Origin: Patescibacteria group bacterium
Lineage (GTDB): Bacteria; Patescibacteriota; Patescibacteriia; JAXHNJ01
Length of the DNA: 64,000 nucleotides
NCBI GenBank assembly: GCA_034520665.1
Contig: JAXHNJ010000002.1
Location: 352,660 to 416,659 of the forward strand
Direction: 5' to 3'
Shown here: one piece after another, positions 21,676 through 42,329 of the stretch
How positions within the stretch are numbered: the stretch's first letter is position 1
How the letters are laid out: each line of letters begins with the position of its first letter
Translations under genes and position numbers: made by a program
The notes under the pieces: generated by a model
What the model saw: only the letters and a program-made list of their open reading frames with translations
Database searches by the model: none
Told to the model about the DNA's origin: nothing

Positions 21676-21740
21676 TAGTTTAATCCTCGTTAAGCCACCG
21701 TATTTATTTTTTAGTTGTGGTTATTGCAGCTAGTAAGGTT

Positions 21741-22148: not shown

Positions 22149-22348
22149 AACTACAACCTTACTAGCCGCCATAACTAAAACTAAATTCAATAAAAAAATT
22201 TGGTGACTCCTTTAGCGGAGCCACCAAAATCTGTCTACAAGTATAGAATATATTTTTCGGCTAAATATGTCAAGTTGTAAATCCACAAATTATCAACTTC
22301 TATTATAGTATGACCTTAAGCTCCGTCAAAGGACACAAGTTTTGCCCT

Positions 22349-22378
22349 TATAAAAAAGGGGCTCGTTTGAGCCCCATG
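22349..22378 (-). terminator. Rho-independent terminator of prs (minus strand: GGGGCUC-AAAC-GAGCCCC + U run)
   Basis: GC-rich 7-bp stem followed by TTTTTT on the minus strand, immediately after the prs stop. Confidence 0.55.
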
Positions 22379-22382
22379 GGAA

Positions 22383-23417: not shown

Positions 23418-23517
23418 CTCCTTCTCCTCTCGCCAAAAATTTAAAAGAAATTAAAGGTACGTTCATAATTAGCTTTTTATCTTATCAAGACTAATAAATC
23501 TGTCAAATTAATAATAA

Positions 23518-24315: not shown

Positions 24316-24405
24316 AATATATTTTAAATTAATTATTTTTGGTGTTTAGAACAATAGTAAGTGCCTCGCCCGTTAACTTTTTTAATTCTCAAGATATGAT
24401 TTTCC

Positions 24406-25161
24406 TCATCTAACTTTATTCGAATATTTAATCATCTGTTTGGCATTTTTAGGAGCGTATCCTTTTTCGTCATTATCAAAATAACAATAGATTTCTTTTA
24501 CCCTTTTTTCTTTTTTAATCTTTTTAAAATAACTTGCCCAAGCCCTTAAACTATTTCCATGATAATTACCCTGATAAGGCTTATCACTGGGACCGTGTAA
24601 ACGAATGTAAGCAAAATCAGCTGTTATTTTTCGCGGCGTTTTAATACCGGCCAGCTGATAAAGGCAGAAGGCAATATTATTTTTCTTAAGCAAATTATAG
24701 ACATCATCACGCCACCAGGACTGATCCCGAAATTCTATGGCAATTTGTTTTTTCTTCGGCAGTAAATTAACAAAGTTATTTAATCTTTCAATATTCTTAT
24801 ACCAATTAGGCGGCAGCTGAAAAAGGATTGGCCCGAGATTATTATTCAAAAGATTTACTCGTGAAAAAAAGCGTTTTAGACTTTCTTTGGGATTTTTTAG
24901 CTTTTTCATGTGGGTGATATACCGGCTGGCTTTGACTGAAAAGATAAATTCTTTTGGCACTTTTTTTCTCCAGCTTTTTATTACTTTTTTTGAAGGCAGG
25001 TTATAAAAGGTATTATTTACTTCTACTGTCTGGAAATGATCAGCATAATAATTCAAAAAATTATTAGTCTTAATTTTTTCTGGATACCAAGCTTTTTGCC
25101 AGTGTTTATAATTCCAACCAGAGGTACCAATATGAATTGTGTCTTTGCTATTCTTAGCCAT
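24406..25161 (-). CDS. DUF72 (YecE/UPF0759) family protein
   Basis: HIGTSGWNYKHWQKAWYPEKIK...NNTFYNLP is the characteristic DUF72 N-terminus. Confidence 0.85.
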   Translation of the reverse strand: MAKNSKDTIHIGTSGWNYKHWQKAWYPEKIKTNNFLNYYADHFQTVEVNNTFYNLPSKKVIKSWRKKVPKEFIFSVKASRYITHMKKLKNPKESLKRFFSRVNLLNNNLGPILFQLPPNWYKNIERLNNFVNLLPKKKQIAIEFRDQSWWRDDVYNLLKKNNIAFCLYQLAGIKTPRKITADFAYIRLHGPSDKPYQGNYHGNSLRAWASYFKKIKKEKRVKEIYCYFDNDEKGYAPKNAKQMIKYSNKVR

Positions 25162-25332
25162 TAAAAAATTTGTGGTTTATTTAATACACTTTCAGTATAA
25201 CATTTATAATTACTTAAACAATTTGATTATTTATAATTTATTTTATTCCCCTTATTATCCCAGCTGTTTTTAACCACCTTTCCGCCGTCTTAACTTTCTG
25301 CTAAAATAAATGAGTAAACTATTATCAATTAG

Positions 25333-26067
25333 ATGATTATTTTATATAGTATTCTTTGTTTTTTAGCTATAACTATTTTTCTTTTAGTTATTCTTTTATT
25401 TAAGCCGAGGAAAAATAAATTTATTTATGAAAAACAAATAGATAAAATACTTCTTAATAATAGCTTTAGTTCATTTAAGCCCGATGAAATGCATCTTCTT
25501 GAAAAAATAGAAAATAACACCGCTTTTTTCCGAATAACTAAACCGGGGCTCTATTCGGCTTATGAAAATAATGTCTACTCTCAATATTATATAGTTCCAA
25601 AATTATATAAAAACAATAAAAAAAATATTGGAATTAATGCTTTTTTTATCCGGAAAAAACCAAAAACCTGGTTCGAACAAAGATTCCCCCAAAGATCAAC
25701 CTTATTCTTTGAATTTTTATTAAATATTCAAATAAATGAAGAAATTATTATATTTAGAGAGTCTTTTAATACTAAGCTCATGAGAAAATTTTTTCCTGAT
25801 AGCCTTTTAGTTGAGGATGTAGACATTGAAAGTATGCTTTTTAACCATAAATATCAGGTATTCACCAATAATAAAAAAATTGCTTTTAAACTGCTTGATC
25901 CTCTAATTGTTGATTTTCTTAATAAAGAAAAATATGTTTCTTTAATTATAAAAGAGAATTCAATAATTTTTAAAATTTGGCCAAAAATTTCTGAAAAAAA
26001 ATTAAAGCAGTACTTGAATATTGGCGTAAAATTTGTTAAACATATAAAGAGTATCTATAAAAAATAA
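25333..26067 (+). CDS. Membrane-anchored hypothetical protein (244 aa)
   Basis: N-terminal TM. No recognised motif. Its last ~30 codons lie inside direct-repeat copy A. Confidence 0.45.
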   Translation: MIILYSILCFLAITIFLLVILLFKPRKNKFIYEKQIDKILLNNSFSSFKPDEMHLLEKIENNTAFFRITKPGLYSAYENNVYSQYYIVPKLYKNNKKNIGINAFFIRKKPKTWFEQRFPQRSTLFFEFLLNIQINEEIIIFRESFNTKLMRKFFPDSLLVEDVDIESMLFNHKYQVFTNNKKIAFKLLDPLIVDFLNKEKYVSLIIKENSIIFKIWPKISEKKLKQYLNIGVKFVKHIKSIYKK

Positions 26068-26093
26068 TAAATTTAGCCCAGGTGGCGGAACTG
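25965..26093. repeat. Direct repeat copy A (~129 bp): 3' end of ORF 25333..26067 plus the first 18 nt of tRNA-Leu
   Basis: About 95% identical to 28009..28137. Confidence 0.85.
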
Positions 26094-26162
26094 GTAGACG
26101 CGCTAGGTTTAGGACCTAGTGGGAGTAATCCCGTGGAGGTTCAAGTCCTCTCCTGGGCACCA
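26076..26162 (+). tRNA. tRNA-Leu (anticodon TAG), class II with long variable arm, CCA encoded
   Basis: Cloverleaf: acceptor GCCCAGG/CCTGGGC; anticodon stem CTAGG/CCTAG with loop TTTAGGA; T-arm GGTTCAAGTCC; 3' ACCA. Confidence 0.9.
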
Positions 26163-26186
26163 GTGCTAACATTTTTATCAAACTAT

Positions 26187-27512
26187 ATGACTAATATGAA
26201 ATATTTATTTACAAGTACTATTATTTGCCTTTTTTTATTAATCCCTTTGGCAGCTCATAGCACTGACGATTGTGAAAACGGTTATGAATATCAGCGTATG
26301 AGTGGAGTTGGTTGTGTTCAAATAAATTGTAACGACATCCCTAATGCTCATTATAGTTACACAAAAGATTGTATTTGTGGTTCCTCTGGCAGTATCCATG
26401 AAGACCCTTCCGACCCAAATACTGAGTGTTATAGAAAGCCCACTTATAAAGCTTGTCCAAGTTGCTTATACGCCTGTGTTCATGCTGGTGAAGAGTGCCC
26501 CGGAGAAGAAAGAGATAATTATGTTGAAGATAGTCAAACAAATACAAACACTAACATAAACAGCAACACTAGTAATCAAAATTCTAACACCAATCAAAGC
26601 GTAAATAATAATACTAATTCCAGCAATACAAATATTTCTGTCGCCGGCACTAATATATCTCTTTCCACTTCAGGAAATATTGATTACAACAGTTGTGAAT
26701 ATATCTGCAGTAAATTTACTCGAGGAAATAAATACGCTGTCGTAAATTTAGCTGAAGGAACTCCTCCAAACTGTAAATGTCAGATAGATATAAACGACAA
26801 ATTAAATCGTCTTAACCAAACCATAAGTGTCAACGGGGACAATGAGACCACATTAACATTTGACCCTAACACTGGTCGGTTAATTAAAAAAACAAAAATC
26901 AATAGAAAAGATGAAGTGGAAAAAATTAGAAAAAGATTAGGCTATAAGTACACGCAAGAACAAATAGATAAATTACTAGCCTCTAATAAAATTGATGAAT
27001 GGTTTAATCAACAGATAAAAAATATTAAAACTTCTACCAGCTTAAAAGATCCGCAGTTTTGGTGGCAACATATGGTCGCCATTTGGGATCATGGATTTGG
27101 TGGTAACAGCGCTGACTTTGTTGACACCTATGAATTCGGGCGTTGTGGTGATTCAATGCTTTGGTTGAACCGTAATCTTACTGCTCATTTGGATATAAAT
27201 GACAACAAAAATACTGCTGGACAAAAACACGAAGCCATCCTTTCAATTACTGGAGAAAAATACGGCAACCTATTAAATCATACCTCCACTCTTATTCGCC
27301 CACAGGGTATATCAAACGTCGCTTGGGAGGATTTAGTAAAAACCCTCCAAGATAAATCAGGAGGTGGAGACAAAAATCCCGGTATTAAAAGAAATGATCT
27401 AAAAAATATCGCCCCAGAAATAATGGATGCAAAAGTATTAGATCCATACAAAAAAGAAATAACCACCGTTAGAGAATTTATTAAGGGATGGTCTTATATA
27501 AGAATTGGTTAA
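26187..27512 (+). CDS. Secreted Cys-rich protein with Asn/Thr-rich low-complexity linker (441 aa)
   Basis: The ORF-track start at 26082 overlaps the tRNA. The internal ATG at 26187 precedes a signal peptide (MTNMKYLFTSTIICLFLLIPLAAHS). Eleven or more Cys in the first 120 mature residues, then NTNTNINSNTSNQNSNTNQ... low complexity, then a C-terminal domain of unknown function containing HGFGG...GRCGDS. Confidence 0.55.
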   Translation: MTNMKYLFTSTIICLFLLIPLAAHSTDDCENGYEYQRMSGVGCVQINCNDIPNAHYSYTKDCICGSSGSIHEDPSDPNTECYRKPTYKACPSCLYACVHAGEECPGEERDNYVEDSQTNTNTNINSNTSNQNSNTNQSVNNNTNSSNTNISVAGTNISLSTSGNIDYNSCEYICSKFTRGNKYAVVNLAEGTPPNCKCQIDINDKLNRLNQTISVNGDNETTLTFDPNTGRLIKKTKINRKDEVEKIRKRLGYKYTQEQIDKLLASNKIDEWFNQQIKNIKTSTSLKDPQFWWQHMVAIWDHGFGGNSADFVDTYEFGRCGDSMLWLNRNLTAHLDINDNKNTAGQKHEAILSITGEKYGNLLNHTSTLIRPQGISNVAWEDLVKTLQDKSGGGDKNPGIKRNDLKNIAPEIMDAKVLDPYKKEITTVREFIKGWSYIRIG

Positions 27513-28017
27513 TTATAAATATATGAAAAAAAGAAAAATAATTTTTTTGTCTATAATAGCAATAATTTTTTTGATCTTACTTTTTGGTTATTTTATTTTG
27601 CGTTGGATACCAAAAGATATTACAGAAGTAACCGAGATAAATTCCGAAGAACATTGGGGAACAATTACCGGCTCGCTGGGTTATCCAAGCGATATTATTC
27701 CTGACATGGGAGTTTGTGCCGAAAGCACTGACCAGAATGACTTATTTTGCACCTATGAAATAATTGAGAATGAAGATTTCACTTATGGATTAGGCTATGA
27801 AATAAAAGTGCCACCAGATTCATATTACGTTTTTGCTCATCTTATTGATGAAACTAACAAAAATATTGGGTATACAGATGAAGATAAAGCCTACTATTCA
27901 AAATTTGTAACCTGTGGCATGGGCCTAGAGTGTACTTCGCACAAACCAATTAAAGTAACTGTGGAAAGATATGAAACCGTTACCAGAATTGATCCAATAG
28001 ATTGGTATAATTTTTAA
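27505..28017 (+). CDS. Membrane-anchored hypothetical protein (170 aa)
   Basis: N-terminal TM. Overlaps the upstream stop by 8 nt, which suggests coupling. Confidence 0.45.
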   Translation: MVNYKYMKKRKIIFLSIIAIIFLILLFGYFILRWIPKDITEVTEINSEEHWGTITGSLGYPSDIIPDMGVCAESTDQNDLFCTYEIIENEDFTYGLGYEIKVPPDSYYVFAHLIDETNKNIGYTDEDKAYYSKFVTCGMGLECTSHKPIKVTVERYETVTRIDPIDWYNF

Positions 28018-28137
28018 AATTTGGCCAAAAATTTCTGAAAAATAATTAAAACAGTACTTGAATATTGGCGTAAAATTTGTTAAACATATACAGAGTATCT
28101 ATAAAAAATAATAAATTTAGCCCAGGTAGTGGAACTG
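28009..28137. repeat. Direct repeat copy B (~129 bp)
   Basis: Matches 25965..26093 with about 6 mismatches, including a frame-disrupting change in the copied ORF tail. Confidence 0.85.
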
Positions 28138-28430
28138 TCCCGAAGTTGTCAAAATCTTTAATTTTGTGACAACTTCGAGGATCCTCGTTCTCCTTTTGCC
28201 AGACGAAAAATTTACTTGCCCGCCTATGCCTGCGCCAGGGTGGTGAAACTGGTAGACACGCAAGGTTTAGAACCTAGTGAGCGCAAGCTCGTGAGAGTTC
28301 AAATCTCTCCTCCGGCATAGGCATTGGCGGGCGGGCCTGCCAGGGCTTGGGAGTTCAATTCTCTCTCTCCTAGCACTAACATCGACCTGTGCCAGACGTA
28401 GCCTTTGGCGAAGTCATCTCCTGGGCCCCA
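28120..28430 (+). pseudogene. Array of tRNA-Leu-derived fragments: split tRNA-Leu-like 5' (28120-28137) and 3' (28409-28430) pieces flanking a 14-bp hairpin, a pseudo-tRNA-Leu(TAG)-like body (28222-28322) and a further T-arm/3'-trailer fragment
   Basis: The 5' piece GCCCAGGTAGTGGAACTG breaks in the D-loop. The 3' piece AAGTCATCTCCTGGGCCCCA resembles the 3' end of the intact tRNA-Leu. The internal body (GGTGGTGAAACTGGTAGACACGCAAGGTTTAGAACCTAGTGAGCGCAAGCTCGTGAGAGTTCAAATCTCTCC) has D, anticodon (TAG), variable and T arms, but its acceptor strands do not pair (TGCGCCA vs CTCCGGC) and it is enclosed by a 9-bp stem GCCTATGCC/GGCATAGGC. A third fragment repeats the T-arm plus the CACTAACAT trailer. 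Confidence 0.45.
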
Positions 28431-28528
28431 TAAATCAAGCTTTTAGTCTATTTTTCTGGAATTAAAAATATATTTATTAAATTATAAATTTTTGCTAATA
28501 TGAAAGCATAAAATAACTATAAAAAATC

Positions 28529-29527
28529 ATGCTTTTATTTTGGATTTTAGTCTTTATTGTTTCCTTAGCAGTATTAGTAAAATGCGCTGACTGGTTTTTA
28601 ATCAGTGCGGAAAAAATAGGCCTATCCCTGGGCTTATCCCCTTTTATTGTCGGCGTGACTATTGTTGCTTTAGGTACTTCTTTTCCTGAACTTATTACTG
28701 CTTTAACCGCCTCGTTCAAAGGAGTAACTGAAATTGTGCCAGCTAATGCTATTGGCTCCAACATCGCCAATATACTTTTAGTGGTTGGTTTTGCCGCCAT
28801 TTTCGCTAAAAAATTAACTGTTACCAAAAGCTTAATTAATCTTGACCTGCCTCTTTTAGCTATTGGCACCGTCCTTCTTTTGGGTATTCTTTGGGATGGG
28901 GAAGTTAATATATTGGAAGCAGTACTTTTGCTTTTAACTTATACCACCTATATTTTTTATACTCTAAAACATGAGGAAGAACCTAACTCTTCTGAAGAAA
29001 GAGAAATTCTGCCATCGCGCCCCAGCCGCCGTCACCACATTACCCACAAAAAAAAGAAAGGGGGAATTAAACAACAAAAATTAATAAAAAAGGATTTTGT
29101 TTTATTAGTTATCGGAGTTTTAGGCTTAATTTTTGGTTCTCGTTATTTAATAAATTCGGTTACTGAGATTTCCGCTATATTAGAAATTGGCGCCGGAGTT
29201 ATTGCTATCTCGGCCGTGGCTATTGGTACCTCTTTGCCCGAATTAATGGTTACTATTAAGGCCGCTCTAGCTCATAAATCAGAAGTGGCCTTAGGTAATA
29301 TATTCGGCTCCAATATCTTTAACATGCTAGTGGTAGTTGGTTTACCCGGTATTTTTTCCAACTTAAAAGCTGATGAAAAAACCATTACCCTTGGTCTGCC
29401 CGCTTTGGCTCTAACTACTTTAATATTTGTTATCTCCGGTATCTCCAGAAAGATTCATATCTGGGAAGGTTTTTTCTATCTTTCTTTGTATGTTTTATTT
29501 ATTGGTAAGTTATTTGATTTGTTTTAA
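28529..29527 (+). CDS. CaCA-family Na+/Ca2+ (cation/Ca2+) exchanger, YrbG-like
   Basis: Two alpha-repeats GTSFPEL and GTSLPEL. About 10 TM segments. Central hydrophilic loop. Confidence 0.85.
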   Translation: MLLFWILVFIVSLAVLVKCADWFLISAEKIGLSLGLSPFIVGVTIVALGTSFPELITALTASFKGVTEIVPANAIGSNIANILLVVGFAAIFAKKLTVTKSLINLDLPLLAIGTVLLLGILWDGEVNILEAVLLLLTYTTYIFYTLKHEEEPNSSEEREILPSRPSRRHHITHKKKKGGIKQQKLIKKDFVLLVIGVLGLIFGSRYLINSVTEISAILEIGAGVIAISAVAIGTSLPELMVTIKAALAHKSEVALGNIFGSNIFNMLVVVGLPGIFSNLKADEKTITLGLPALALTTLIFVISGISRKIHIWEGFFYLSLYVLFIGKLFDLF

Positions 29528-29578
29528 AGAAAATAAAAGTTTAATTTTTTAAATTAAAAATAAAATAGGAATAAAACC

Positions 29579-30505
29579 CTATTTTTTATTTTCTTTAATT
29601 AATTTATATGAAAATATAGGCCCAAGAATAAATAAAAAAATTACTTTAACGGCTCTTCCCAGTAAAGCACTAGCCAGTGATACTGTCGGGGATATACCAA
29701 AAGCATTTGCAGAAAAAACAATAATTACTTCTTCTATACCTAGATTAGCTGGTGTAATTGATATGAGTAAAGAAAGATTAGTTAAGGAAGAAAGAATTAA
29801 AGCTCCTGCAAAATTAATTTCCACTCCAAAAACTTTAAATTGAAGGATCAGCATCAAAGCAATTAATGTAAGCTGAAAAATAGCAAAAAGAGCTACCAAA
29901 AAGATAATTTTTTGATTATTTTTAATTAAATTCCAGCCATGGAAAACTTTTGAAATTTTTCCTAACCACCTCCCTTTTAATTTCGGAATGTATCCCGAGA
30001 AAAAAATTAATAATAACATTAATAAAATAATAATAAAAAAAATACCTATTATTAACCAATTATAATTTTCTATTATATTAAAAATATATAAAGAAGAAAA
30101 TAAACCAATAATTCCTGAAACAATAAATATTATTATATACATCCCAGCCAGAGTAGATAAAAAAGTAGTATAACTTAATTTATATTTTTTTTTCAGATAA
30201 GCAGCTCTAATCATCATTCCCCCTCTAAAAGGAGTTATTAAATTATAAAAACCCGTAGCCACAGCTAGCATAAAAGATTCACTAACTTTAATAATTATCC
30301 CAAAAGGTTTAAGCAATGAGCGAATATAAACCGCTACACAAATATAAGAAACCCCAAATAATATAATAAGGTAAATAATTAAAGCTGGAGAAACTAGAGA
30401 AAGTTTTTGAAAACTCGAAATATTATTGAAAATATAATATAAAGCAAAAATTAAAAGTAATAATAGAATTATTAACTTTATTATATTTTTTTTAATTTTA
30501 TTCAT
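29579..30505 (-). CDS. Flippase-like / UPF0104 (LPG-synthase TM-domain-like) membrane protein
   Basis: Polytopic membrane protein with C-terminal ...ITPANLGIEEVIIVFSANAFG motif typical of the family. Confidence 0.55.
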   Translation of the reverse strand: MNKIKKNIIKLIILLLLLIFALYYIFNNISSFQKLSLVSPALIIYLIILFGVSYICVAVYIRSLLKPFGIIIKVSESFMLAVATGFYNLITPFRGGMMIRAAYLKKKYKLSYTTFLSTLAGMYIIIFIVSGIIGLFSSLYIFNIIENYNWLIIGIFFIIILLMLLLIFFSGYIPKLKGRWLGKISKVFHGWNLIKNNQKIIFLVALFAIFQLTLIALMLILQFKVFGVEINFAGALILSSLTNLSLLISITPANLGIEEVIIVFSANAFGISPTVSLASALLGRAVKVIFLFILGPIFSYKLIKENKK

Positions 30506-30514
30506 ATTATAAAA

Positions 30515-31276
30515 TTATAATTTTTTGGCTATACATAAATACCCTTCAGATAAATCAAACCTATTAAATAATTTGCTAAATTGTATAAAGGAATAAAGCA
30601 CATACTTGTTGGAAATTAAACTTATTAGAGGTAATTTAACAAAATTAAGTCCACTTTTCTGGCTAAGTTCATATTTGCTTCTAGTTAATATTTTATTTTT
30701 CTCTCGTCTTGCAAATATAATTCTAATTAATTTTAATAAATTTAAAAAAGGAAATCCATAAGAATAAAATTTAATTATCTGAAAATTATTCTTTCCTAAA
30801 AAATTAATTAATTCTGCTTTTTCATAACGCCTAAAATGACCGACCAATTTATCATCAATACCCCAATATTTTCTACGAGCAGGAACAGAGAAAACAATAT
30901 AACCGTTGGAATTTAATAAAAAATTTATTTTATCTAAAAAATCTTGGTCATTTTCTATATGTTCAAGAACTTCAAAAAAAGTGATTAATCCAAATTTTTT
31001 ATTTGTCTTAAATTTTAAAAAATCAATTTGACTAAATTTTAATTCTTTGGATTTTTCCTCTTTAATCCTATTTTTAATTATTTTTGCCGCTTTTTTAGAA
31101 AAATCGATAAGATGCCCCATATAATTACTTTTAATTAAACTAAAGGCAAAATCTCCAGAACCACAACCTATATCAAGAAAATATGTTTTTTTAGGTACAT
31201 AATTTTTAATTAAATCTAAAGCTAATTTTTTTCTAAATAAATAGCGTGGGTATTTTATAAATTTATTTTCTGACAT
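30515..31276 (-). CDS. Class I SAM-dependent methyltransferase
   Basis: Motif I FLDIGCGSGDF. Rossmann-fold spacing of motifs II/III. Confidence 0.75.
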   Translation of the reverse strand: MSENKFIKYPRYLFRKKLALDLIKNYVPKKTYFLDIGCGSGDFAFSLIKSNYMGHLIDFSKKAAKIIKNRIKEEKSKELKFSQIDFLKFKTNKKFGLITFFEVLEHIENDQDFLDKINFLLNSNGYIVFSVPARRKYWGIDDKLVGHFRRYEKAELINFLGKNNFQIIKFYSYGFPFLNLLKLIRIIFARREKNKILTRSKYELSQKSGLNFVKLPLISLISNKYVLYSFIQFSKLFNRFDLSEGYLCIAKKL

Positions 31277-32327
31277 TTTTTTTAATTATCTCTTCCAATG
31301 AATTTTTAATTCTCTCCTGCACTGATAAAAATGTATTAAATCCCTTTTCTGAAATTTTCTCTATTAATATTTTATTATTTTCTAATTGGGTTATTGCTTT
31401 AACTAAATCTTTTGGATCAGAATTTTTTACCATTAAACAATTATTTTGACTAATAAAAACTTCCTTATTAGCTTCATTCTGACTAACAATGACTGGCTTC
31501 TTCATTGCTAAGAACTGATAAACTTTTCCTGGAATCACTCTTTTAGCTTTAGAAATTTTTGAGAAATGACCGCCTAAACAAACATCAGCTTTAGCAATTT
31601 CCTCCGGCAATTTTTCATATTTAATCCAATCAATAAATTCTATATTATTTATATTTTTTTCTGCAACAATCTTATTAATCTTATTTTTTTTCGGCCCTCG
31701 TCCAATAATTTTAAAAATGATATTTTTTTTATTCTCTAATAACTTGGCAGATTCAACAATATATTCTAAACCATGCAAGGGGCGAAAAGTTGAATAATAT
31801 AAAACAATAAATTTATTAATTTTTTTTATTTCTTGACGCGGATAAAAAATATTCTTGTCAGCGCCAACATAGACTGAAGAAATTTTATTTTTAGGTATTT
31901 TATAAAGTTCCTTAAAGAATTTAACATGAGTCTTTGTATCCAATAAAATATGATCAACAATACCAAGTAGATATTTTTCAAAGTAAAACATCAACTTACC
32001 AATTAATGAATAAGGTGAGATAACTTTTCTCTCAAAACAAAGCGTATCATAAAGTGATATAAAAGCGTCAAAAATTATCGGCTTTTTAGTTAATAAGCGC
32101 AAAAAAGGTAAAACCTCGTGACCACGAAAACCGACAATAATTACATCTATATCTTTTTTAGAAATAAATAGATATTTCCAGAAAACCTGTAAATATCTAA
32201 ATAAAGATTTTTTATTTACAACACATTCTATGACATCAATACTTTTAATTTCTTTTAGGCAATTAATGATTACATTTTGTCTGACATAATTATCTAAATA
32301 ATAAGTGGCAAAGTAAAGAATTTTCAT
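31263..32327 (-). CDS. Glycosyltransferase family 4 (GT-B, group 1)
   Basis: C-terminal GT1/GT4 domain pattern (...GGHFSKISKAKRVIPGKVYQFLAMKKPVIVS...). 354 aa. Confidence 0.65.
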   Translation of the reverse strand: MKILYFATYYLDNYVRQNVIINCLKEIKSIDVIECVVNKKSLFRYLQVFWKYLFISKKDIDVIIVGFRGHEVLPFLRLLTKKPIIFDAFISLYDTLCFERKVISPYSLIGKLMFYFEKYLLGIVDHILLDTKTHVKFFKELYKIPKNKISSVYVGADKNIFYPRQEIKKINKFIVLYYSTFRPLHGLEYIVESAKLLENKKNIIFKIIGRGPKKNKINKIVAEKNINNIEFIDWIKYEKLPEEIAKADVCLGGHFSKISKAKRVIPGKVYQFLAMKKPVIVSQNEANKEVFISQNNCLMVKNSDPKDLVKAITQLENNKILIEKISEKGFNTFLSVQERIKNSLEEIIKKNVRK

Positions 32328-32329
32328 AA

Positions 32330-33310
32330 TTATGATTGATCTTTCTTTACTGTATTATTTCTTTGATAATGTTTTATTTTTTCAAAATATATTATTTTTT
32401 CTTGAGTTCTTCTTACCTTATTAATCATATCAGCTACTAAACCAACAATAATTAGTAATAAACCGAAAATATTTAAGGCTAAGCCCATAAAGCCTAAAGT
32501 TTTATAGGGAAAAACTGCTCCTAAAATTAGTAATCTTATAAATATAAAAATATCAAAAATAAGACCAAGAATAAAAAAAATAATTCCGGTCCAGCCAAAA
32601 TATCTTAAAGGCTTATAATCAATAAGAGTTCTAAAAAAAGTATTTAATATTTGATAGCCATAACGCCAAAGATTATGGGCAATTTTTGATTGACCAAAAT
32701 CTCTTTCGCCCTTTACTTTAATAGGAACTTCTTTAATTAATAAATTTTTAAAAGCTAAATTAAGAATCGTTTCATGGGTGTAAGTATAACGCCCAAAAAG
32801 ATTAAGGTTCAGTAAGGCCTCTCTAGAATAAGCCCGAAAACCGCAGGAAACATCATAGAATTTTTTCTTTGTTGATAAACTGATTAATCGGCTAATTATA
32901 AAATTACCCCCTTTTTTTAGCCGCGGCATTCTAGGAATAATTTTTTTATTTATAAATCTTGAAGCAGTGACTAAAGCCTTTTTTTCCTCTATTATTGGTT
33001 TCACTAAATAAGGAATATCTCCGGCATTAAACTGACCATCAGCGTCAATATTAACCATTATATCTGCTTTTCTTTTTAAAGCTTCCTCTACTCCTCTTTG
33101 AAAAACTAAACTTAAGCCCTGATTTTCTAAAAAAGAAATAACTTCGGCTCCGGCTCTTAAAGCTTCCCTTTTTGTGGCGTCATCAGAGCCATCATCAATA
33201 ACTAAAACTTCTATATTATCAATTCCTTTAATTTCTTGGGGGATATCTTTTATAACCGACTTTATTGTCTTTTCTTCGTTATAGGCCGGCAGTAAAACTA
33301 ATAACTTCAT
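32330..33310 (-). CDS. Glycosyltransferase family 2, polyprenyl-phosphate sugar transferase-like (DPM1/ArnC/GtrB-like) with C-terminal TM helices
   Basis: LLPAYNEEKTI...VIDDGSDDAT...DADGQ (DXD region). Two C-terminal TM segments. Confidence 0.8.
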   Translation of the reverse strand: MKLLVLLPAYNEEKTIKSVIKDIPQEIKGIDNIEVLVIDDGSDDATKREALRAGAEVISFLENQGLSLVFQRGVEEALKRKADIMVNIDADGQFNAGDIPYLVKPIIEEKKALVTASRFINKKIIPRMPRLKKGGNFIISRLISLSTKKKFYDVSCGFRAYSREALLNLNLFGRYTYTHETILNLAFKNLLIKEVPIKVKGERDFGQSKIAHNLWRYGYQILNTFFRTLIDYKPLRYFGWTGIIFFILGLIFDIFIFIRLLILGAVFPYKTLGFMGLALNIFGLLLIIVGLVADMINKVRRTQEKIIYFEKIKHYQRNNTVKKDQS

Positions 33311-33350
33311 ATCTTTTATTTAATCATATAATTAATAATTATTAAAGAAA

Positions 33351-34892
33351 TTAATTTATTTTTATTTTATAAAAATAAAATCCATTTTTTTCAAATAGTA
33401 ATTTTAAATCTTTATTTTCTTTTATTTTATATAGATTTTTCAAATTTGGTCTAAGATATGGTATTTTTTCATTGTTAAAAATAAGATATTTTATTTCTCT
33501 GTTTCTAGCAAATTCAATTATATCTTCATACTCATTGCTTGGCAAAATATAATTTATTCCTTGAGCCCAATAAGCTATTATTCTTGCATTCGTTAATATT
33601 TTATGGCCAGAGCCATACTTTTCCTTAAAAAATTGACTCATTTCTTTTATTTCTGTATCTCTGAACAAGGAAAAAAATCTGAATTGATAACCATCTTCTA
33701 TAGCAATAACAAACTGAAAAGACAAAAAAACTAATAAAATACTCAATATAACTATCCTCTTCTTTTTAAAGGATAAACTTTGATATAATCTCACTATACC
33801 TACGGCCACAATCATTAATATAATTGGAGTTAGCGGAAAGTAATAGCGGTAATAGACTTTTCCTGAATAATATATAAAAAGGAAAAAGGGTATCCAGCTA
33901 CCTAAAAAATAAAGTTTGTGCAAAATATATTTTTTCTTTTTTGAAAAATAAAAAGCAAAAACTATAAAAATTATCTGAAAAATAAAGTAACAGATAACAT
34001 AGGCTATATTATGAGGTAAATTTCTGAAAAAATTATTAATATAAATAATTATATACGATTTTTTTGGTTTTTCCATTTCTAGCTGGTTACTATTATAATC
34101 TGTATTTTCTTCATTCAACCCAAAGAAAATGATATTTTTTTCAAAATAAGAACTTTTGCTAGAAGAAACCGCGTAATCCTGCTGACCGGTAATTACAAAC
34201 TGGCCTTTTTCTTTATATAAATAAATCAAATAAGGAGAAACAACCATAACCACACCAATTATTAATAAGGTTAAACTAATAAATAATTTCTTTAATCTAA
34301 TTCTTTTATAATAAATATAATTAATAAAAAGCCATAAGATTATAACCGGCAAAAAACTTAAACCAACAATTCTTACATAATAAGAAAAACCAATTAAAAT
34401 ACCTAAGATCAGATACCAAAAAGTATTTTTCTCTTTATTTAAAAGAAGCCAACTTAAAAGAACAATACTAATAAAGAGAAAAGTAAATAAAGCTTCGGTC
34501 CAGGCCGCACCAGAATACCAAATAACATAAGGGTTTAAAATAAATAAAATAATAGATAGAATAGCTATTTTAAAATTAAAAAGTTTTTTAGCCAGAAAAT
34601 AAATAATAATAATTGATAAAAAAGTACTAATTAAGGAAACAATCTGGCTGGCCAGTTCAATATTATTTAAATAAAAATTATAAACATAAATCATAAAAGG
34701 AAAACCAGGCTGTATCAAACTATTTAACCGGGTAGTAGTATTAATCTTTAAACTTTTATCTAGGTTTTCTGCTAATTTGAAATATAAGGCTGAGTCACTA
34801 CTAGAAACCACTGAAGAAGAAAAAGTAAAAAATAAAACAAGAGCTAATAACAATATACCTCCCACAAAATATATTTCTTTTTTTCTAGACAT
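33351..34892 (-). CDS. GT-C-fold membrane glycosyltransferase (ArnT/PMT-like; GT39/GT83-like), tandem paralog 1
   Basis: 513 aa with 11 or more TMs. N-terminal ...SDSALYFKLAENL... periplasmic-loop motif typical of polyprenyl-P-sugar-dependent GT-C enzymes. Confidence 0.55.
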   Translation of the reverse strand: MSRKKEIYFVGGILLLALVLFFTFSSSVVSSSDSALYFKLAENLDKSLKINTTTRLNSLIQPGFPFMIYVYNFYLNNIELASQIVSLISTFLSIIIIYFLAKKLFNFKIAILSIILFILNPYVIWYSGAAWTEALFTFLFISIVLLSWLLLNKEKNTFWYLILGILIGFSYYVRIVGLSFLPVIILWLFINYIYYKRIRLKKLFISLTLLIIGVVMVVSPYLIYLYKEKGQFVITGQQDYAVSSSKSSYFEKNIIFFGLNEENTDYNSNQLEMEKPKKSYIIIYINNFFRNLPHNIAYVICYFIFQIIFIVFAFYFSKKKKYILHKLYFLGSWIPFFLFIYYSGKVYYRYYFPLTPIILMIVAVGIVRLYQSLSFKKKRIVILSILLVFLSFQFVIAIEDGYQFRFFSLFRDTEIKEMSQFFKEKYGSGHKILTNARIIAYWAQGINYILPSNEYEDIIEFARNREIKYLIFNNEKIPYLRPNLKNLYKIKENKDLKLLFEKNGFYFYKIKIN

Positions 34893-35020
34893 TATTAAAG
34901 CTTTTTTAATTATTTTAAAATTTACCCCGCCCCATTGTTTTTTCTTCGTTATAGGCCGGCAGTAAAACTAATAACTTCATATCTTTTATTTAATCATATA
35001 ATTAATAATTATTAAAGAAA

Positions 35021-36565
35021 TTAATTTATTTTTATTTTATAAAAATAAAATCCATTTTTTTCAAATAGTAATTTTAAATCTTTATTTTCTTTTATTTTAT
35101 ATAGATTTTCTAATCTAGGCCTTATCCAAGAAATACGATTTTTATCAAAAATAAGATATTTTATTTCTCTGTTTCTAGCAAATTCAATTATATCTTCATA
35201 CTCATTGCTTGGCAAAATATAATTTATTCCTTGAGCCCAATAAGCTATTATTCTTGCATTCGTTAATATTTTATGGCCAGAGCCATACTTTTCCTTAAAA
35301 AATTGACTCATTTCTTTTATTTCTGTATCTCTGAACAAGGAAAAAAATCTGAATTGATAACCATCTTCTATAGCAATAACAAACTGAAAAGACAAAAAAA
35401 CTAATAAAATACTCAATATAACTATCCTCTTCTTTTTAAAGGATAAACTTTGATATAATCTCACTATACCTACGGCCACAATCATTAATATAATTGGAGT
35501 TAGCGGAAAGTAATAGCGGTAATAGACTTTTCCTGAATAATATATAAAAAGGAAAAAGGGTATCCAGCTACCTAAAAAATAAAGTTTGTGCAAAATATAT
35601 TTTTTCTTTTTTGAAAAATAAAAAGCAAAAACTATAAAAATTATCTGAAAAATAAAGTAACAGATAACATAGGCTATATTATGAGGTAAATTTCTGAAAA
35701 AATTATTAATATAAATAATTATATACGATTTTTTTGGTTTTTCCATTTCTAGCTGGTTACTATTATAATCTGTATTTTCTTCATTCAACCCAAAGAAAAT
35801 GATATTTTTTTCAAAATAAGAACTTTTGCTAGAAGAAACCGCGTAATCCTGCTGACCGGTAATTACAAACTGGCCTTTTTCTTTATATAAATAAATCAAA
35901 TAAGGAGAAACAACCATAACCACACCAATTATTAATAAGGTTAAACTAATAAATAATTTCTTTAATCTAATTCTTTTATAATAAATATAATTAATAAAAA
36001 GCCATAAGATTATAACCGGCAAAAAACTTAAACCAACAATTCTTACATAATAAGAAAAACCAATTAAAATACCTAAAATTAGATACCAAAAAGTATTTTT
36101 TTCTTTATTTAAAAGAAGCCAACTTAAAAAAACAATACTAATAAAGAGAAAAGTAAATAAAGCTTCGGTCCAGGCGGCACCAGAACACCAAATAACATAA
36201 GGGTTTAAAATAAATAAAATAATAGATAGAATAGCTATTTTAAAATTAAAAAGTTTTTTAGCCAGAAAATAAATAATTATTATTGATAAAAAAGTGCTAA
36301 TCAAGGAAACAAGCTGGCTGGCCAGTTCAATATTATTTAAATAAAAATTATAAACATAAATCATAAAGGAATAACCAGGTTGTACCAGGCTATGCAAACT
36401 AGTAGTAGTATTAATCTTTAAACTTTTATCTAGGTTTTCTGCTAATTTGAAATATAAGGCTGAGTCACTGGTAGAAACTACTGAGGAAGAAAAAGTAAAA
36501 AATAAAACAAGAGCTAATAACAATATACCTCCAAGAAAATATATTTCCTTTTTCTTTCCCATCAT
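35021..36565 (-). CDS. GT-C-fold membrane glycosyltransferase (ArnT/PMT-like), tandem paralog 2
   Basis: 514 aa. More than 95% identical to paralog 1, except for the N-terminal residues and a ~15-aa C-terminal patch (DKNRISWIRPRLENL vs NNEKIPYLRPNLKNL). Confidence 0.55.
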   Translation of the reverse strand: MMGKKKEIYFLGGILLLALVLFFTFSSSVVSTSDSALYFKLAENLDKSLKINTTTSLHSLVQPGYSFMIYVYNFYLNNIELASQLVSLISTFLSIIIIYFLAKKLFNFKIAILSIILFILNPYVIWCSGAAWTEALFTFLFISIVFLSWLLLNKEKNTFWYLILGILIGFSYYVRIVGLSFLPVIILWLFINYIYYKRIRLKKLFISLTLLIIGVVMVVSPYLIYLYKEKGQFVITGQQDYAVSSSKSSYFEKNIIFFGLNEENTDYNSNQLEMEKPKKSYIIIYINNFFRNLPHNIAYVICYFIFQIIFIVFAFYFSKKKKYILHKLYFLGSWIPFFLFIYYSGKVYYRYYFPLTPIILMIVAVGIVRLYQSLSFKKKRIVILSILLVFLSFQFVIAIEDGYQFRFFSLFRDTEIKEMSQFFKEKYGSGHKILTNARIIAYWAQGINYILPSNEYEDIIEFARNREIKYLIFDKNRISWIRPRLENLYKIKENKDLKLLFEKNGFYFYKIKIN

Positions 36566-36684
36566 TAAAACTTTTTTAATTATTTTTAAAATCTGTTCCT
36601 CTCTTTATAATAAATAATAATTGAAAAAAAGCAGTTAAGCAAGCCGTTTATCTCTTAAAATAAAAGATGATGGCTCTTTAAATT

Positions 36685-37126: not shown

Positions 37127-39513
37127 AACCAATACAAGAGAAATAAGGAGTTATCCACAAAAATATGGAACAAAAAAACCTTAATCTTAAACAAAAAAGC
37201 GGCTAATTTGCGCCTAATTATTTTTTAAGCGTAAAAGTCGCTTGAAAGCGGCTTTTTTGTTTCTTACATTAACTTCTTTAATAAGAACTTTGACAATTAA
37301 ATAATGGTAACAATAAAGAGCATCTACTTAAAATCAACTAAAAAATTAACTTAAATTCATATTTTTAAGCGAGTAAATCAGGATCTAAAAAAGAGCATAT
37401 GGTGGATGCCTCGACATTAAAAGGCGAAGAAGGACGTAGCAGCCTGCGATAAGCCTCGGTCAGGTGGCAAGCAACCTTTGATCCGGGGATTTCCGAATGG
37501 GGAAACCCGTCTGTCTTTTTAAGGACAGTCATCTATGTCTGAATCTATAGGACATAAGAAGTGCACCTGGGGAATTGAAACATCTTAGTACCCAGTGGAA
37601 AAGAAAAAAAAGGGTTAGCTCATAGCTAATGACGGTTTTTGCCGTCATCTGCTATTTGCTAATATATTCCCAGAGTAGTGGCGAGCGAAATGGGAAAAGT
37701 CCAAACTTGTGAAGTTTTTCCGCTTTTGGCGGGAAAGGGGTCATAAGCCCTTATACTTTACGGGGGTAGTGAGATAATTACTTTTAAATCAGCTTATGAC
37801 TGATTGGGGATAGCGTATGTAGTAGACTTTCCTAAAGTTTATTAGGAAATACTATTACTATTTCCTAGCTAAATCACCTGGAAAGGTGAACCAAAGAAGG
37901 TGATAGTCCTGTAAGCAAAAGGAAATAAACTTCCTCGTGATTATTCTCGAGTACCACGAGACTCGTGAAATCCCGTGGGAATCTGGCATGACTATTTTGC
38001 CAAGACTAAATACTTTTAATGATCGATAGCGAACTAGTACCGTGAGGGAAAGGTGAAAAGCACCCCGGTGAGGGGAATGAAATAGTATCTGAAACCATAT
38101 GCTTACAAGCAGTCGGAGTCCCGCCTTTGGTGTGGATGACGGCGTGCCTATTGAAGAATGAGCCAACGACTTAGTTTTATACAGTTTTCGATTAAGCCCT
38201 TCAAGGGCGAAATCAAAGTGAAAGCAAGCGTGAAAACGCGACCATTAGTTAATTAGTGGTTAGTTATTTTATATAATTAATTCACTAATTTTCTAAAAGA
38301 TTGTATGAACTAGACCCGAAGCCAAGTGAGCTATCCATGGCCAGGATGAACTCTTGAGAAATCAAGGGGGAGGTCCGAACCCACTAGCCGTGCAACGCTA
38401 GGGGATGAGCTGTGGATAGAGGTGAAATGCTAATCGAACTTGGCAATAGCTGGTTCTCCTCGAAATAGCTTTAGGGCTAGCCTTATAAATACTTATATGG
38501 AGGTAGAGCACTGAATGGGTGCGGATGGCGTAAGCCTACCACATCCAACCAAACTCCGAATTCCATGTATTTAATTATAGGAGTCAGACCATGGGGGCTA
38601 AGCTCCATCGGTCAAAAGGGAAACAGCCCAGACCACCATCTAAGGTCCCTAAATTTAGGCTAAGTGTAAAGGCAGTATCGCAACTGAAACAACTAGGAGG
38701 TTGGCTTAGAAGCAGCCATCCTTTAAAGAAAGCGTAACAGCTCACTAGTCAAGTTACTTTGCGCCAAAAATTTATAGGGGCTCAAGCCTAATACCGAAGA
38801 TGTGGTCCCCCACTTATTTATAGGTGGGGGAGGTAGAGGAGCATTCCACGTTTACTGAAGTCAATTTGTTAAAATTGATGGAAAACGTGGAAGTGAGAAT
38901 GTTGGCATAAGTAGCAAAAATCAGGGTGAGAATCCCTGACACCGCAAGCTTAAGGTTTCCTGGGCAACGTGAATCGACCCAGGGTTAGTCGGTCCTAAGG
39001 CGAGGCCGAAAGGCGTAGTCGATGGACAGCTGGTTAATATTCCAGCACCGTCTATTTTGCTTGCAACTAATTGACGCATCCTCAAAGTCTGAGCGCATTT
39101 TGGCTATATGCGTTCCTTCACTTAATTTAAGTGGGGGAGAAGAAAAAACCTCCGGGTGGATTCGATTCAGGTGGAGCGGGTGCCAAGAAAAGATTAGCCG
39201 TGTCTAACTTAATAGATGACCGTACCAAAACCAACACAGGTGAGCGGGCAGTTAATCTGCTAAGGTGTACGAGAGAACCCTCGTTTAGGAACTCGGCAAA
39301 ACAGTGGCCGTAACTTCGGGATAAGGCCTTCCCCCACTTGCTTGCAAGTGTGGGGACGCAGTTAATGATCTCAAGCGACTGTTTATCAAAAACACAGGTC
39401 CCTGCTAAACCGTAAGGTGATGTATAGGGGCTGATGCCTGGCCAGTGTCAGAACGTTAAGGGGATAGGTGCAAGCCTTGAACTGAAGCGCTGATGAACGC
39501 CGGCGATAACTAT

Positions 39514-40250
39514 AAGTGACGATTGTAGTTATAAAATTTGGCTATATGCGGGAAACCCTCCTTCATTTGAAGTACTCGCCTTTTACTAAAAGGCAGTAAC
39601 AATCTTCAAAGGACATAATTGTCAGGAGGCAATCCGCAGGAAAGACTCTTGGTAAGAAAGGATTAAACTATGGTAAAAAATAAATGGTTAAAAAATGTAC
39701 CAATAAATATTGGTAATTATATTGCTGGATTTGTAGACGGTGAAGGAAGCTTCAATGTTTCATTAAGAAAAAGAAAAGATCATAAAATGAAATGGCAAGT
39801 TGTATTAACCTTTAATGTATCTCAAAAAGAAAGAGCTATATTGTCTTTACTTAAACGTTATTTAAGTTGTGGCAGACTACAAACTAGAAAAGATGGAGTA
39901 TCTTATTATGTAGTTTCAAATCCATTATCTATTAAAGAAAAAATTATTCCTTTTTTTAGTAGATTTCCCTTCTTATCACAAAGAAAAAGAAGAAACTTCT
40001 CAATTTTTAAAAGAATTACTAATTTAGTCATTAAAAAGGAGCACTTAAATAGCTCGGGACTAGAAAAAATAATTCAACTCAGAGAAAAATTAAATCCCGG
40101 ACGTGGAAGAAAAAGAAAATATTCATTAAAAGACTATAAACAAAACCAAGAGAATCCTCAGAGACTATACGCCAAACCGCGATCTTTTCGTAAAGAAAAA
40201 AGCGGATGAGATAGTCCGATCTCATAGGTAACTATGAGCTAACAATAAAG
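39514..40250 (+). mobile_element. Group I intron in 23S rRNA at E. coli-equivalent position ~L1917 (helix 69), carrying a LAGLIDADG ORF
   Basis: Exon junction reconstructs ...GGCGAUAACUAU|AAUCGUCCUAAGGUAGCG with a compensatory H69 stem. The 5' exon ends in U and the intron ends in G. A P1-like pairing exists between exon ATAACTAT and intron GTAGTTAT. Confidence 0.7.
39670..40209 (+). CDS. LAGLIDADG homing endonuclease (single-motif, homodimer type), intron-encoded
   Basis: NYIAGFVDGEGSF motif. 179 aa. Embedded in the 23S intron. Confidence 0.85.
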   Translation: MVKNKWLKNVPINIGNYIAGFVDGEGSFNVSLRKRKDHKMKWQVVLTFNVSQKERAILSLLKRYLSCGRLQTRKDGVSYYVVSNPLSIKEKIIPFFSRFPFLSQRKRRNFSIFKRITNLVIKKEHLNSSGLEKIIQLREKLNPGRGRKRKYSLKDYKQNQENPQRLYAKPRSFRKEKSG

Positions 40251-40254
40251 AATC

Positions 40255-40317
<63 letters not shown>

Positions 40318-40826
40318 GAGAACTCTCTCAACGAGGGACTCGGTGAAATTGCATTACGAGTAAAGATGCTCGTTACCCACGGCCGGACGAAAAGACCCCG
40401 TGAAGCTTTACTACAACTTGGCATTGAGTTAAGTTTGTGTTTGCTCAGTATAGGTGGGAGACTTTGAAGTCCCAATTTCGGTTGGGACTGAGTCGCCATG
40501 TGAAATACCACCCTAACGTAAATTTAGTTCTAATTTTTGACCATGAAACTGGTCAGGAAAACAGTGTCTGGTGGGTAGTTTGACTGGGGCGGTCGCCTCC
40601 CAAATTGTAACGGAGGCGCTTACAAAGGTTGGCTAGGCTGGGATGGAAATCCAGCCGATAGTGTAAAGGCATAAGCCAGCTTTACTGCAAGACCTACAAG
40701 TCGCGCAGTTACGAAAGTAGAACTTAGTGATCCGACTCTCGATTATAGGATCGGAGAAGCTCATCGGATAAAAGTTACTCCGGGGATAACAGGCTTATCG
40801 GTTCCAAGAGTTCATATCGACGAACC

Positions 40827-40867
<41 letters not shown>

Positions 40868-40898
40868 AAGAAGCTCCCAAGGGTTTGGCTGTTCGCCA

Positions 40899-40942
<44 letters not shown>

Positions 40943-41765
40943 AAAATATAAATAACGTTCTGTCTCTTTTCGTCCATAAAATTAAAATGATCGTGCTGTC
41001 TATAAATCTGGCTATATGCTGGAAACTCTGGCATCCTCAAATAAGGAGAATAGAGGATTGAAGAATCTCACACTACGTGTTATAATATACGTGAAAATGT
41101 GTTGAGTGCAGACAACCAGCAGGGAAGATTTATAGGGAAAAATATGTTAAATCCAAATTACATTTCTGGCTTTGTAGATGGAGAAGGCAGTTTTCATGTC
41201 GCCATTTACAAAGATAATCGTATGAAACATAATATAAAAATAATACCGGAATTTCATATTAGTCAACGAAAAGATAGTAAAATGATTCTGGAAAAAATAA
41301 AAGATTATCTTCAATGTGGTTATATCAAGAAAAATCATGCTAAAAATAAAAATGATTTGACATATGTTTATGTAGTTAGAAATCGAAAAGACCTTCTAGA
41401 AAAAATAATTCCTTTCTTTGAAAAATACACACTAAAAACAGTGAAGAAAAAAGACTATAACATATTCGCTAAAATAGTAGAACTTATGAATAATAATAGA
41501 CACAGTAAAAAAAGTGGACTTAGAAAAATTATTAAACTTTCTTACTCTATGAATAGAAAAGGTAAATACAGAAGATCAAAAATCTCCCTATAAAAACCCT
41601 CAGAGACTATACGCCGGACTCCAACTATAAAATGGAGAAGATATAGTCCGAACTCTATGGCGACATAGAGAGATAAGTAGAAATAACTTATCCCGTAACC
41701 ATAAACCCATTTTTGAAATTTGAATTTTGGAATTTGGAGTTTGTTGTTACGTAGTAACAATTCTG
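40943..41765 (+). mobile_element. Group I intron in 23S rRNA at E. coli-equivalent position ~L2593, carrying a LAGLIDADG ORF
   Basis: Exon junction reconstructs ...CGUCGUGAGACAGU|UCGGUCUCCUAUCCGCCGUGGGCG. The 5' exon ends in U and the intron ends in G. Shares a ~25-nt core (ATYTGGCTATATGCKGGAAACYCT) with intron 1. Confidence 0.7.
41099..41593 (+). CDS. LAGLIDADG homing endonuclease (single-motif), intron-encoded
   Basis: NYISGFVDGEGSF motif. 164 aa. Inside the second 23S intron. Confidence 0.85.
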   Translation: MLSADNQQGRFIGKNMLNPNYISGFVDGEGSFHVAIYKDNRMKHNIKIIPEFHISQRKDSKMILEKIKDYLQCGYIKKNHAKNKNDLTYVYVVRNRKDLLEKIIPFFEKYTLKTVKKKDYNIFAKIVELMNNNRHSKKSGLRKIIKLSYSMNRKGKYRRSKISL

Positions 41766-42211
41766 TCGGTCTCCTATCCGCCGTGGGCGTTTAGAAACTT
41801 GAGAAGATTCTTCCCTAGTACGAGAGGACCGGGAAGAACGAACCTCTAGTCTATGAGCTGTTCCGCCAGGAGCATAGTTCAGTAGCTACGTTCGGAAAGG
41901 ATAAACGCTGAAAGCATATAAGCGTGAAGCCTCCTTCAAGATTAGGTTTCCTTATTTAGTCTCCTTCAAGATAAGAAGGTTAATAGGTGGCCGGTGTAAG
42001 ATCCGTAAGGATTTGAGCCAAGCCATACTAACAGACAATTATTCCTGATTTACTCACTTAAAAATTATGAATTCATTAAAAAATAAATGAAAAAATACAA
42101 AGCCACTTTGAAATTACTCTTAATCTTTATTGTTTTAACCATTTTTTTAGAAATACTACTTTATTTTTCTCCAGCCACTATAGCGGCTAATTAAAATTAA
42201 GAGAGGTAGTA

Positions 42212-42329
42212 TCCTGGTGATACTAGCGACTGTGTTACACCCCTTTCCATTCCGAACAGGGCCGTTAAGACAGTCAGCGCCGATGATACTTGGGGTTTAT
42301 CCCTGAGGGAAAGTAGGTCATCGCCAGGA
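42212..42329 (+). rRNA. rrf: 5S ribosomal RNA
   Basis: Helix I CCUGGUGA/UCAUCGCCAGG. Conserved CCGAACAGGGCCGTTAAG and AGTAGGTCATCGCCAGG. An extended precursor stem GAGAGGTAGTA/ATTGCCTCTC flanks it. T-run terminator at 42341. Confidence 0.85.

Follow-up and report, generated by a model that had tools for sequence, protein, structure and literature searches.

How do two tandem glycosyltransferase genes come to be identical over most of their length and sharply different in a few short blocks? This question is raised by a 64-kb stretch of DNA (referred to below as the window) from a Patescibacteria metagenome-assembled genome, in which two GT-C glycosyltransferase genes, named here copy A (33351-34892, 513 amino acids) and copy B (35021-36565, 514 amino acids), follow each other on the minus strand. 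They carry adjacent NCBI accessions (MDZ7798797.1 and MDZ7798798.1, respectively) on a contig of 698,002 bp. An earlier note on this DNA had described them as a very recent duplication with one localized divergent patch. We hold it moderately probable that the duplication is real and that the copies are a recombinational mosaic of three ages, with old islands situated in outer loops of the protein.

Both open reading frames (ORFs) are intact and arranged head to tail. They belong to a direct tandem repeat with a period of 1,670 nucleotides (nt), which spans positions 33264 to ~36591. Repeat unit 1 (33264-34933, minus strand) is composed of copy A, a 40-nt spacer and the first 47 nt of a functional GT2 glycosyltransferase gene; repeat unit 2 (34934-36591, minus strand) contains copy B and the spacer, followed by 47 nt left over from the start of GT2. 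When unit 1 is aligned with 34934-36590, the identity is 96.3% over 1,662 alignment columns, and the description of two nearly identical 1,670-bp units given in the earlier note thus holds. The sequence 3′ of each GT-C stop codon is also repeated, but it is non-coding, as had been claimed, only in part: the low-coordinate end of the unit falls 47 nt into the GT2 gene (32330-33310), which is the next gene on the minus strand, and the repeated downstream sequence, now found between the copies, consists of the 40-nt spacer and the first 47 nt (15 codons) of GT2. Upstream of the start codon, the two units share only about 25-28 nt. The extra residue of copy B is due to an upstream ATG arising from one substitution.

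The flanks of the repeat were compared with those of the nearest relative, a single-copy locus (L001) with 85% nt identity and a protein (P0002) with 80% identity. The alignment with L001 extends over 77 nt upstream of the copy B ATG and over only 28 nt upstream of that of copy A, and the homology runs on into GT2 only after copy A. By these flank alignments, the upstream flank of copy B is the ancestral one, and so is the downstream flank of copy A, which has GT2 as its neighbour. Judged from the alignments, this is the arrangement expected of a simple tandem duplication. At the junction, the duplicated first 15 codons of GT2 run into junction sequence and form a remnant ORF of 21 codons (MKLLVLLPAYNEEKTMGRGKF followed by a stop; 34915-34980, minus strand), which ends 22 nt short of the copy A ATG. 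The junction also contains a filler of 11-12 nt (34922-34933; minus strand, GGGGCGGGGTA), which matches neither flank and is rich in G+C although the genome has a G+C content of 33%, as well as a 25-nt upstream stub that is not the same as the region upstream of copy B. As a separate observation, the filler aligns weakly, with A-to-G changes, to the purine-rich AGAGAGGAACAG upstream of copy B. Plain repeat expansion by the assembler is unlikely, since the copies differ at ~60 sites and the junction carries unique sequence. No third copy of the repeated region is present within the window, and phmmer detected no further GT-C paralogue among ten of its larger ORFs (seven of them with at least 450 amino acids). 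A promoter and terminator scan found no minus-strand terminator-like site between the copies, its counts being equal to those of shuffled controls and the scan therefore uninformative; by inference from this absence, the two copies are likely co-transcribed.

Identity and divergence between the copies are arranged in blocks. The identical sequence amounts in total to ~1,100 nt and includes codons 164-472, the C-terminal tail, the spacer and the GT2 remnant. It falls into a tract of 930 nt (33477-34406, minus strand; codons 164-472), which is 100% identical to 35147-36076, and a tract of 170 nt (33270-33439, minus strand; from the last 28 codons and the stop across the spacer into the GT2 start), which is 100% identical to 34940-35109. 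In a Sawyer-type permutation test with 100,000 permutations and 277 polymorphic sites, the longest run in which A equals B covers 159 of the 277 sites, while the maximum reached by permutation is 61 (p<1e-5). The two tracts are separated by a C-terminal island, located at 33440-33476 in copy A (minus strand; codons 473-485, NNEKIPYLRPNLK) and at 35110-35146 in copy B (minus strand; DKNRISWIRPRLE), in which 21 of the 37 nt differ (p<5e-5 for the clustering). A divergent segment of ~40 nt near the 3′ end had indeed been pointed out, with ~12 of 15 residues changed; we count 9 of 15. The four residues that A and B share within the island (I, R, P, L) are each encoded by different codons.

The N-terminal third of copy A (34407-34893, minus strand) differs from copy B in ~7% of its nt. 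The difference that had been put down to a few N-terminal codons is in fact made up of 35 scattered nt and 13 amino-acid differences over codons 1-164, and 12 of the nt differences lie inside 34698-34731. These 12 differences within 34 nt form a second significant cluster (p<5e-5), the N-terminal island, which corresponds in copy A to codons 55-66 (RLNSLIQPGFPF; minus strand) and in copy B to 36368-36401 (SLHSLVQPGYSF; minus strand). In the protein, it belongs to the first extracytoplasmic loop and comes after the D33 motif, which is conserved. The localized patch first noticed is thus significant, though a second dense island exists in the first outer loop.

The age of each segment was estimated from synonymous and non-synonymous divergence (dS, dN) and the corresponding proportions (pS, pN), obtained by Nei-Gojobori counts segment by segment, between A and B and against L001. 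Over codons 1-164, dS between A and B is 0.25 and dN 0.035 (dN/dS 0.14), and the corresponding values between A and L001 are 0.46 and 0.08; by these counts, the N-terminal third is moderately old and under purifying selection. Codons 165-473 (927 nt, 178 synonymous sites) show zero differences between A and B, and A and L001 are separated there by a dS of 0.65 and a dN of 0.117. In the C-terminal island (13 codons), all synonymous sites differ between A and B (pS 1.0, pN 0.43, ratio <1), and pS is 0.64 between A and L001 and 0.91 between B and L001. The N-terminal island has a pS of 0.78 between A and B and of 0.75 between A and L001. The synonymous sites of both islands being at or near saturation, the islands are, on this measure, old blocks, roughly as old as the split from L001. 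Of the sites at which the copies differ, 28 have in L001 the state of copy A and 24 that of copy B; derived states are thus present in both copies. The attribute "very recent" can be retained at most for two thirds of the unit, and not for the N-terminal third with its dS of 0.25.

These values bear directly on the explanation that a very recent duplication was followed by positively selected point mutation in the C-terminal patch. The identity of ~1,100 nt, noncoding sequence included, and the position of the patch in an exposed loop would be consistent with it. However, the patch has a pS of 1.0 and a pN/pS below 1, four conserved residues are recoded there while zero change is found at 190 flanking synonymous sites, and the N-terminal third, with the dS and dN/dS given above, is too far diverged to suit it. 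Since all four kept residues changed codon while the flanking synonymous sites stayed unchanged, the C-terminal island is better seen as an old block than as a product of diversification after duplication, and the diversifying change proposed in the earlier note is not borne out by the ratio obtained for the patch. Point mutation after a recent duplication is unable to give the three-age pattern, and we regard this explanation as very improbable. Alternatively, the duplication could be old and free of recombination, the identical tract being preserved by strong constraint. Apart from the genes being intact, nothing speaks for this. The tract that is identical between the copies is less conserved against L001 (dS 0.65, dN 0.117) than the N-terminal third (0.46, 0.08), and the noncoding spacer is identical too; we give constraint by itself practically no chance.

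The differences in the patch are densely packed into a short stretch, keep the reading frame and lie close to the 3′ end of a gene whose product is exposed, as would suit targeted hypermutation by a diversity-generating retroelement or by template-switch mutagenesis. Such a process would act from a template, but the window, to which the search was confined, holds no third copy to serve as one, and no reverse-transcriptase family was recognized among those 27 of the window ORFs that were scanned against Pfam. Furthermore, a retroelement would produce mismatches only at template adenines, and an adenine of either copy is found at only 12 of the 21 mismatches; 9 of the 21 occur at sites where copy A has another base, and in neither copy are all 21 sites adenines. 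The patch gives no match when inverted or shifted, and the second island and the diverged N-terminal third are left without an explanation. Hypermutation is therefore hardly credible here. A compensating frameshift or an inversion within the patch was also considered and rejected, the in-frame alignment being the best one (24 of 45 matches).

An island mosaic of the same type is found in the relatives. A DNA-pattern scan yielded only L002 and L003, and the latter is the contig of L001 itself. L001 and L002 come from two metagenomes. They have the same upstream flank and are therefore alleles; the L002 contig ends inside the GT-C gene and so gives no copy number. L001 and L002 are 99.7% identical at nt 4-677 and 100% identical at nt 895-1010, and the 217-nt island between these segments (nt 678-894; codons 226-300, in the large outer loop) is only 72.5% identical, with a pS of 0.47 and a pN of 0.22, a divergence as great as that of either allele from copy A. 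The recurrence of outer-loop island mosaics without duplication indicates that homologous recombination between diverged alleles operates in this gene lineage.

The same observation can be turned into an argument for a strain-chimeric assembly, in which the differences between A and B would be alleles of co-existing strains that the assembler had strung together by way of the identical nodes of 930 and 170 nt. In that case the copies would be identical, or single, in any one cell, with the junction still occurring in one strain or more. The DNA comes from a metagenome-assembled genome, short reads cannot phase an exact repeat of 930 nt, and the alleles of the sister lineage show, between samples, the same island mosaic without duplication. 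On the other hand, the unique junction adjacency and its filler of 11-12 nt are beyond an assembler's invention, the contig of 698 kb suggests a well-resolved assembly, and the 25-nt upstream stub at the junction differs from the sequence upstream of copy B, as if the units had diverged in cis. We consider a strain chimera unlikely, albeit to be reckoned with at a locus where neither short-read phasing nor copy number can be trusted without long reads.

What the two genes encode bears on the possible meaning of the islands. Pfam PF13231 (PMT_2) matches the two copies with 38.7 and 38.3 bits (cut-off 26.1). An AlphaFold model based on 73 homologues has a pLDDT of 93.4 and a pTM of 0.93, and Foldseek relates it, with a probability of 1.0 and TM-scores of 0.55-0.64, to STT3, AglB, PglB, ArnT, ALG9 and AftA. 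According to the domain match and the model, both genes encode a GT-C fold glycosyltransferase, as the earlier note had proposed. No sequence-level match was found in PDB, and neither copy has a PF02366 or MIR match at E<=0.01. A GT39 protein O-mannosyltransferase, as might be understood from the NCBI name "family 39", which is only a broad family label, was rejected because PF02366 and MIR are lacking. ArnT identity was likewise rejected, the equivalog model NF009784 giving 16 bits with a cut-off of 567.

Hydropathy and the positive-inside rule predict 11 membrane helices with the N-terminus inside, and place outside the first loop (26-82), the loop 224-295 and the C-terminal domain (399-513). 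The location of the patch in a C-terminal domain outside the cytoplasm, already suspected in the earlier note, agrees with this prediction. Positions D33, Y37, P62, S127, G164, P220, R349 and P451 are near-invariant across 70 homologues. Both copies are probably active, as every family-invariant residue is kept in both. Within the first outer loop, D33 is present in 67 of the 70 homologues and Y37 in 63, and a catalytic role is inferred for them. The N-terminal island follows directly after the D33/Y37 helix and surrounds the invariant P62. In the model, the C-terminal island sets in where a strand (469-473) of the small alpha/beta C-terminal domain ends and continues through the helices of this domain at 477-489, and it covers the family motif D473-x7-R481-P482-x-L484, whose anchors are kept, while the residues between them vary here and family-wide. 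Both islands are thus predicted to be extracytoplasmic and to adjoin conserved positions.

To return to the recombinational mosaic, a 1,670-bp segment that runs from the GT-C gene through the spacer into the first 47 nt of GT2 would have been duplicated within a surface-glycosylation operon. Most of the unit would have been homogenised, either in the act of duplication or through gene conversion from one copy to the other, and the islands would be old allele blocks, either retained or imported via homologous recombination. Gene conversion had been mentioned as an option from the start, and both the segment ages and the tracts fit it. Within this explanation, we slightly favour conversion between paralogues with retained islands over the import of diverged population alleles into a young duplicate. 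An older duplication with later conversion fits the star-like distances of the islands; a young duplication with allele import fits the single-copy relative, the identity of the noncoding remnant nearly up to the repeat edge and the allelic island of L001 and L002.

Several points weigh against the mosaic or against parts of it. Since L001 has one copy, an old duplication needs a loss or a collapse in that lineage. In the noncoding GT2 remnant, the identity persists up to 6 nt from the edge of the repeat, a better fit to a young duplication than to conversion, albeit with weak statistics. The ages of the islands are imprecise, because the islands are short and have ~7 synonymous sites each, and with a dN/dS below 1 they are no demonstration of selection for difference. 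The C-terminal island is a variable loop throughout the family and may be just weakly constrained. Finally, the copy number and the linkage of the N-terminal and patch variants across the 930-nt tract rest on the assembly rather than on reads.

As to function, both copies would use one and the same lipid-linked sugar, which the neighbouring GT2 would make, and pass it on at the outer side of the membrane. Given that the islands are found beside conserved motifs in extracytoplasmic loops, the copies may recognize different acceptors. Nearly all else being identical, the differing loop residues are natural candidates for determinants of GT-C acceptor specificity, and such determinants are listed as an open question (PMC8035078). 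A further-reaching idea, which we find rather doubtful, is that the islands are specificity-determining segments, i.e., ancient recombining alleles kept by diversifying or balancing selection in candidate-phyla populations. In the duplicates, the segments concerned would be the first outer loop together with the loop of the C-terminal domain; in the L001 and L002 alleles, it would be the large outer loop. If this were true, the pressure on them could come, for instance, from phages or host cells reading the surface glycan, two such alleles would have become fixed in a single genome by way of the tandem duplicate, and the islands would serve as a natural map of the residues with which an uncharacterised clade of GT-C enzymes recognizes its acceptors.

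The genomic context points to lipid-linked glycosylation. The order of the operon on the minus strand is GT-C copy B, GT-C copy A, GT2, GT4, methyltransferase and an LPG_synthase_TM flippase-like protein. The GT2 gene (32330-33310) encodes a GT2 domain (80 bits) and hydrophobic C-terminal segments, as read from its sequence; it is most similar, through partial matches that are all below the equivalog cut-offs, to AglJ, PpgS, Dol-P-hexose transferase and ArnC, and it is presumed to be a polyprenyl-phosphate sugar synthase. On account of this neighbour with its AglJ/PpgS/ArnC-like matches, a polyprenyl-phosphate-linked sugar is a candidate donor for the GT-C enzymes. The same operon includes a GT4 (Glycos_transf_1) glycosyltransferase (31263-32327, minus strand), an S-adenosylmethionine (SAM)-dependent methyltransferase (30515-31276, minus strand) and the LPG_synthase_TM protein (29579-30505, minus strand; 95 bits), a membrane protein that scores 35.2 bits with the flippase-like model TIGR00374 (cut-off 43.2) and is a candidate flippase.

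The cluster of GT2, GT4, LPG_synthase_TM, in part the methyltransferase, and GT-C is also found in L004 and L005. The former has two tandem GT-C genes that are just 36% identical, copies A and B being co-orthologous to the second at 44%. The latter has one operon GT-C (P0005) and two adjacent PMT_2/DUF2142 genes on the opposite strand, for which BLASTP detects no similarity to the A/B family. As these copy numbers vary, the number of GT-C genes at the locus is evolutionarily labile, the operon holding one, two or three of them depending on the relative. In this respect, the pair illustrates how the glycosyltransferase repertoire grows in small-genome candidate-phyla bacteria, and represents the youngest stage among the relatives compared. 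Synteny between L004 (1408-12313) and the window (19405-36565) is broad and includes an LTD/PKD protein, PRPP synthetase and the GT2-GT4-flippase-like cluster. The GT-C genes are 3′ of the flippase-like gene in L004 and before GT2 in the window; given this difference in position, they have moved within the cluster. In addition, L001 (478-972) and L002 (1192-1686) have, between GT-C and a small "HEIGWW" gene, a gene for a PP-loop ATPase-like protein of 164 amino acids with weak NAD_synthase and tRNA_Me_trans matches. This gene is absent from the window, where 119 nt alone (36566-36684) lie between GT-C and the "HEIGWW" gene.

Other features of the window can be described briefly. A 23S rRNA match within 37379-42329 spans 3,619 nt, compared with a model of 2,925 nt, and holds a LAGLIDADG endonuclease ORF (39670-40209); a second LAGLIDADG ORF (41099-41593) is located in the 1.2 kb that separate the 23S end from the 5S rRNA (42213-42329), and the window contains no 16S rRNA. 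Two tRNA-Leu(TAG) genes (25952-26162 and 27996-28317) each follow a repeat of ~125 nt that is ~97% identical. In the second, the first five tRNA bases (GCCCA) are separated by an insertion of ~114 nt from a complete but diverged tRNA; the pair looks like another local duplication with rearrangement. An ORF at 26082-27512 has its mechanical start inside the tRNA-Leu gene (VAELVDALGLGPSG...), its real start being probably a downstream Met; its product looks secreted, is Asn/Ser-rich and has no Pfam match. A tandem pair of paralogues of 119 and 118 amino acids is found at 59211-59974, with 85% identity over 266 nt and a spacing of 407. Finally, a 68-nt repeat, 84% identical between 47365-47432 and 49091-49158 and placed 3′ of two neighbouring genes, resembles a terminator, with a G+C-rich hairpin followed by a T run.

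Compared with known cases, the pair resembles prokaryotic concerted evolution between paralogues (PMC6053082) in that A and B are closer to each other than to their orthologue, and in that highly significant identical tracts with abrupt boundaries alternate with short segments that are still divergent. It differs from the standard case, which is usually proved by a duplication predating the split from the single-copy relative, inasmuch as allelic import can give the same picture here, and allelic islands do occur in the sister lineage. With the ArnT/PMT_2 enzymes (PF13231; structures 5F15 and 5EZM), copies A and B share a PMT_2 match above threshold, the ArnT fold (TM-score 0.55-0.58) and 11 predicted transmembrane helices followed by a small alpha/beta outer C-terminal domain; they are unlike ArnT in the equivalog score (16 bits vs 567) and in having no sequence match to solved structures, no MIR and no PF02366.

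The operon can finally be compared with the three- or multi-component transmembrane glycosylation systems GtrA-GtrB-GtrC, CsbB-GtcA-YfhO and ArnC-ArnE/F-ArnT (PMC8035078). Unlike in these systems, no GtrA/GtcA-type flippase is encoded here, and an LPG_synthase_TM-type protein is found instead; the operon of the window adds a GT4 glycosyltransferase and a methyltransferase, no NCBIfam equivalog threshold is reached, and the envelope of the host, a member of the Patescibacteria, is uncharacterised. In common with them, it combines a multi-spanning GT-C, whose first outer loop carries a conserved Asp, with a putatively membrane-linked GT2 that resembles polyprenyl-phosphate sugar synthases and with a candidate for the flippase; the genes are clustered, in a cluster that is conserved in relatives. 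The use of one donor pathway by several GT-C partners is a known theme (table 1, PMC8035078). Both tandem paralogues that owe their form to conversion or recombination and lipid-linked glycosylation operons with several GT-C partners are already known, and the present pair is a neat, unsurprising case of the two.

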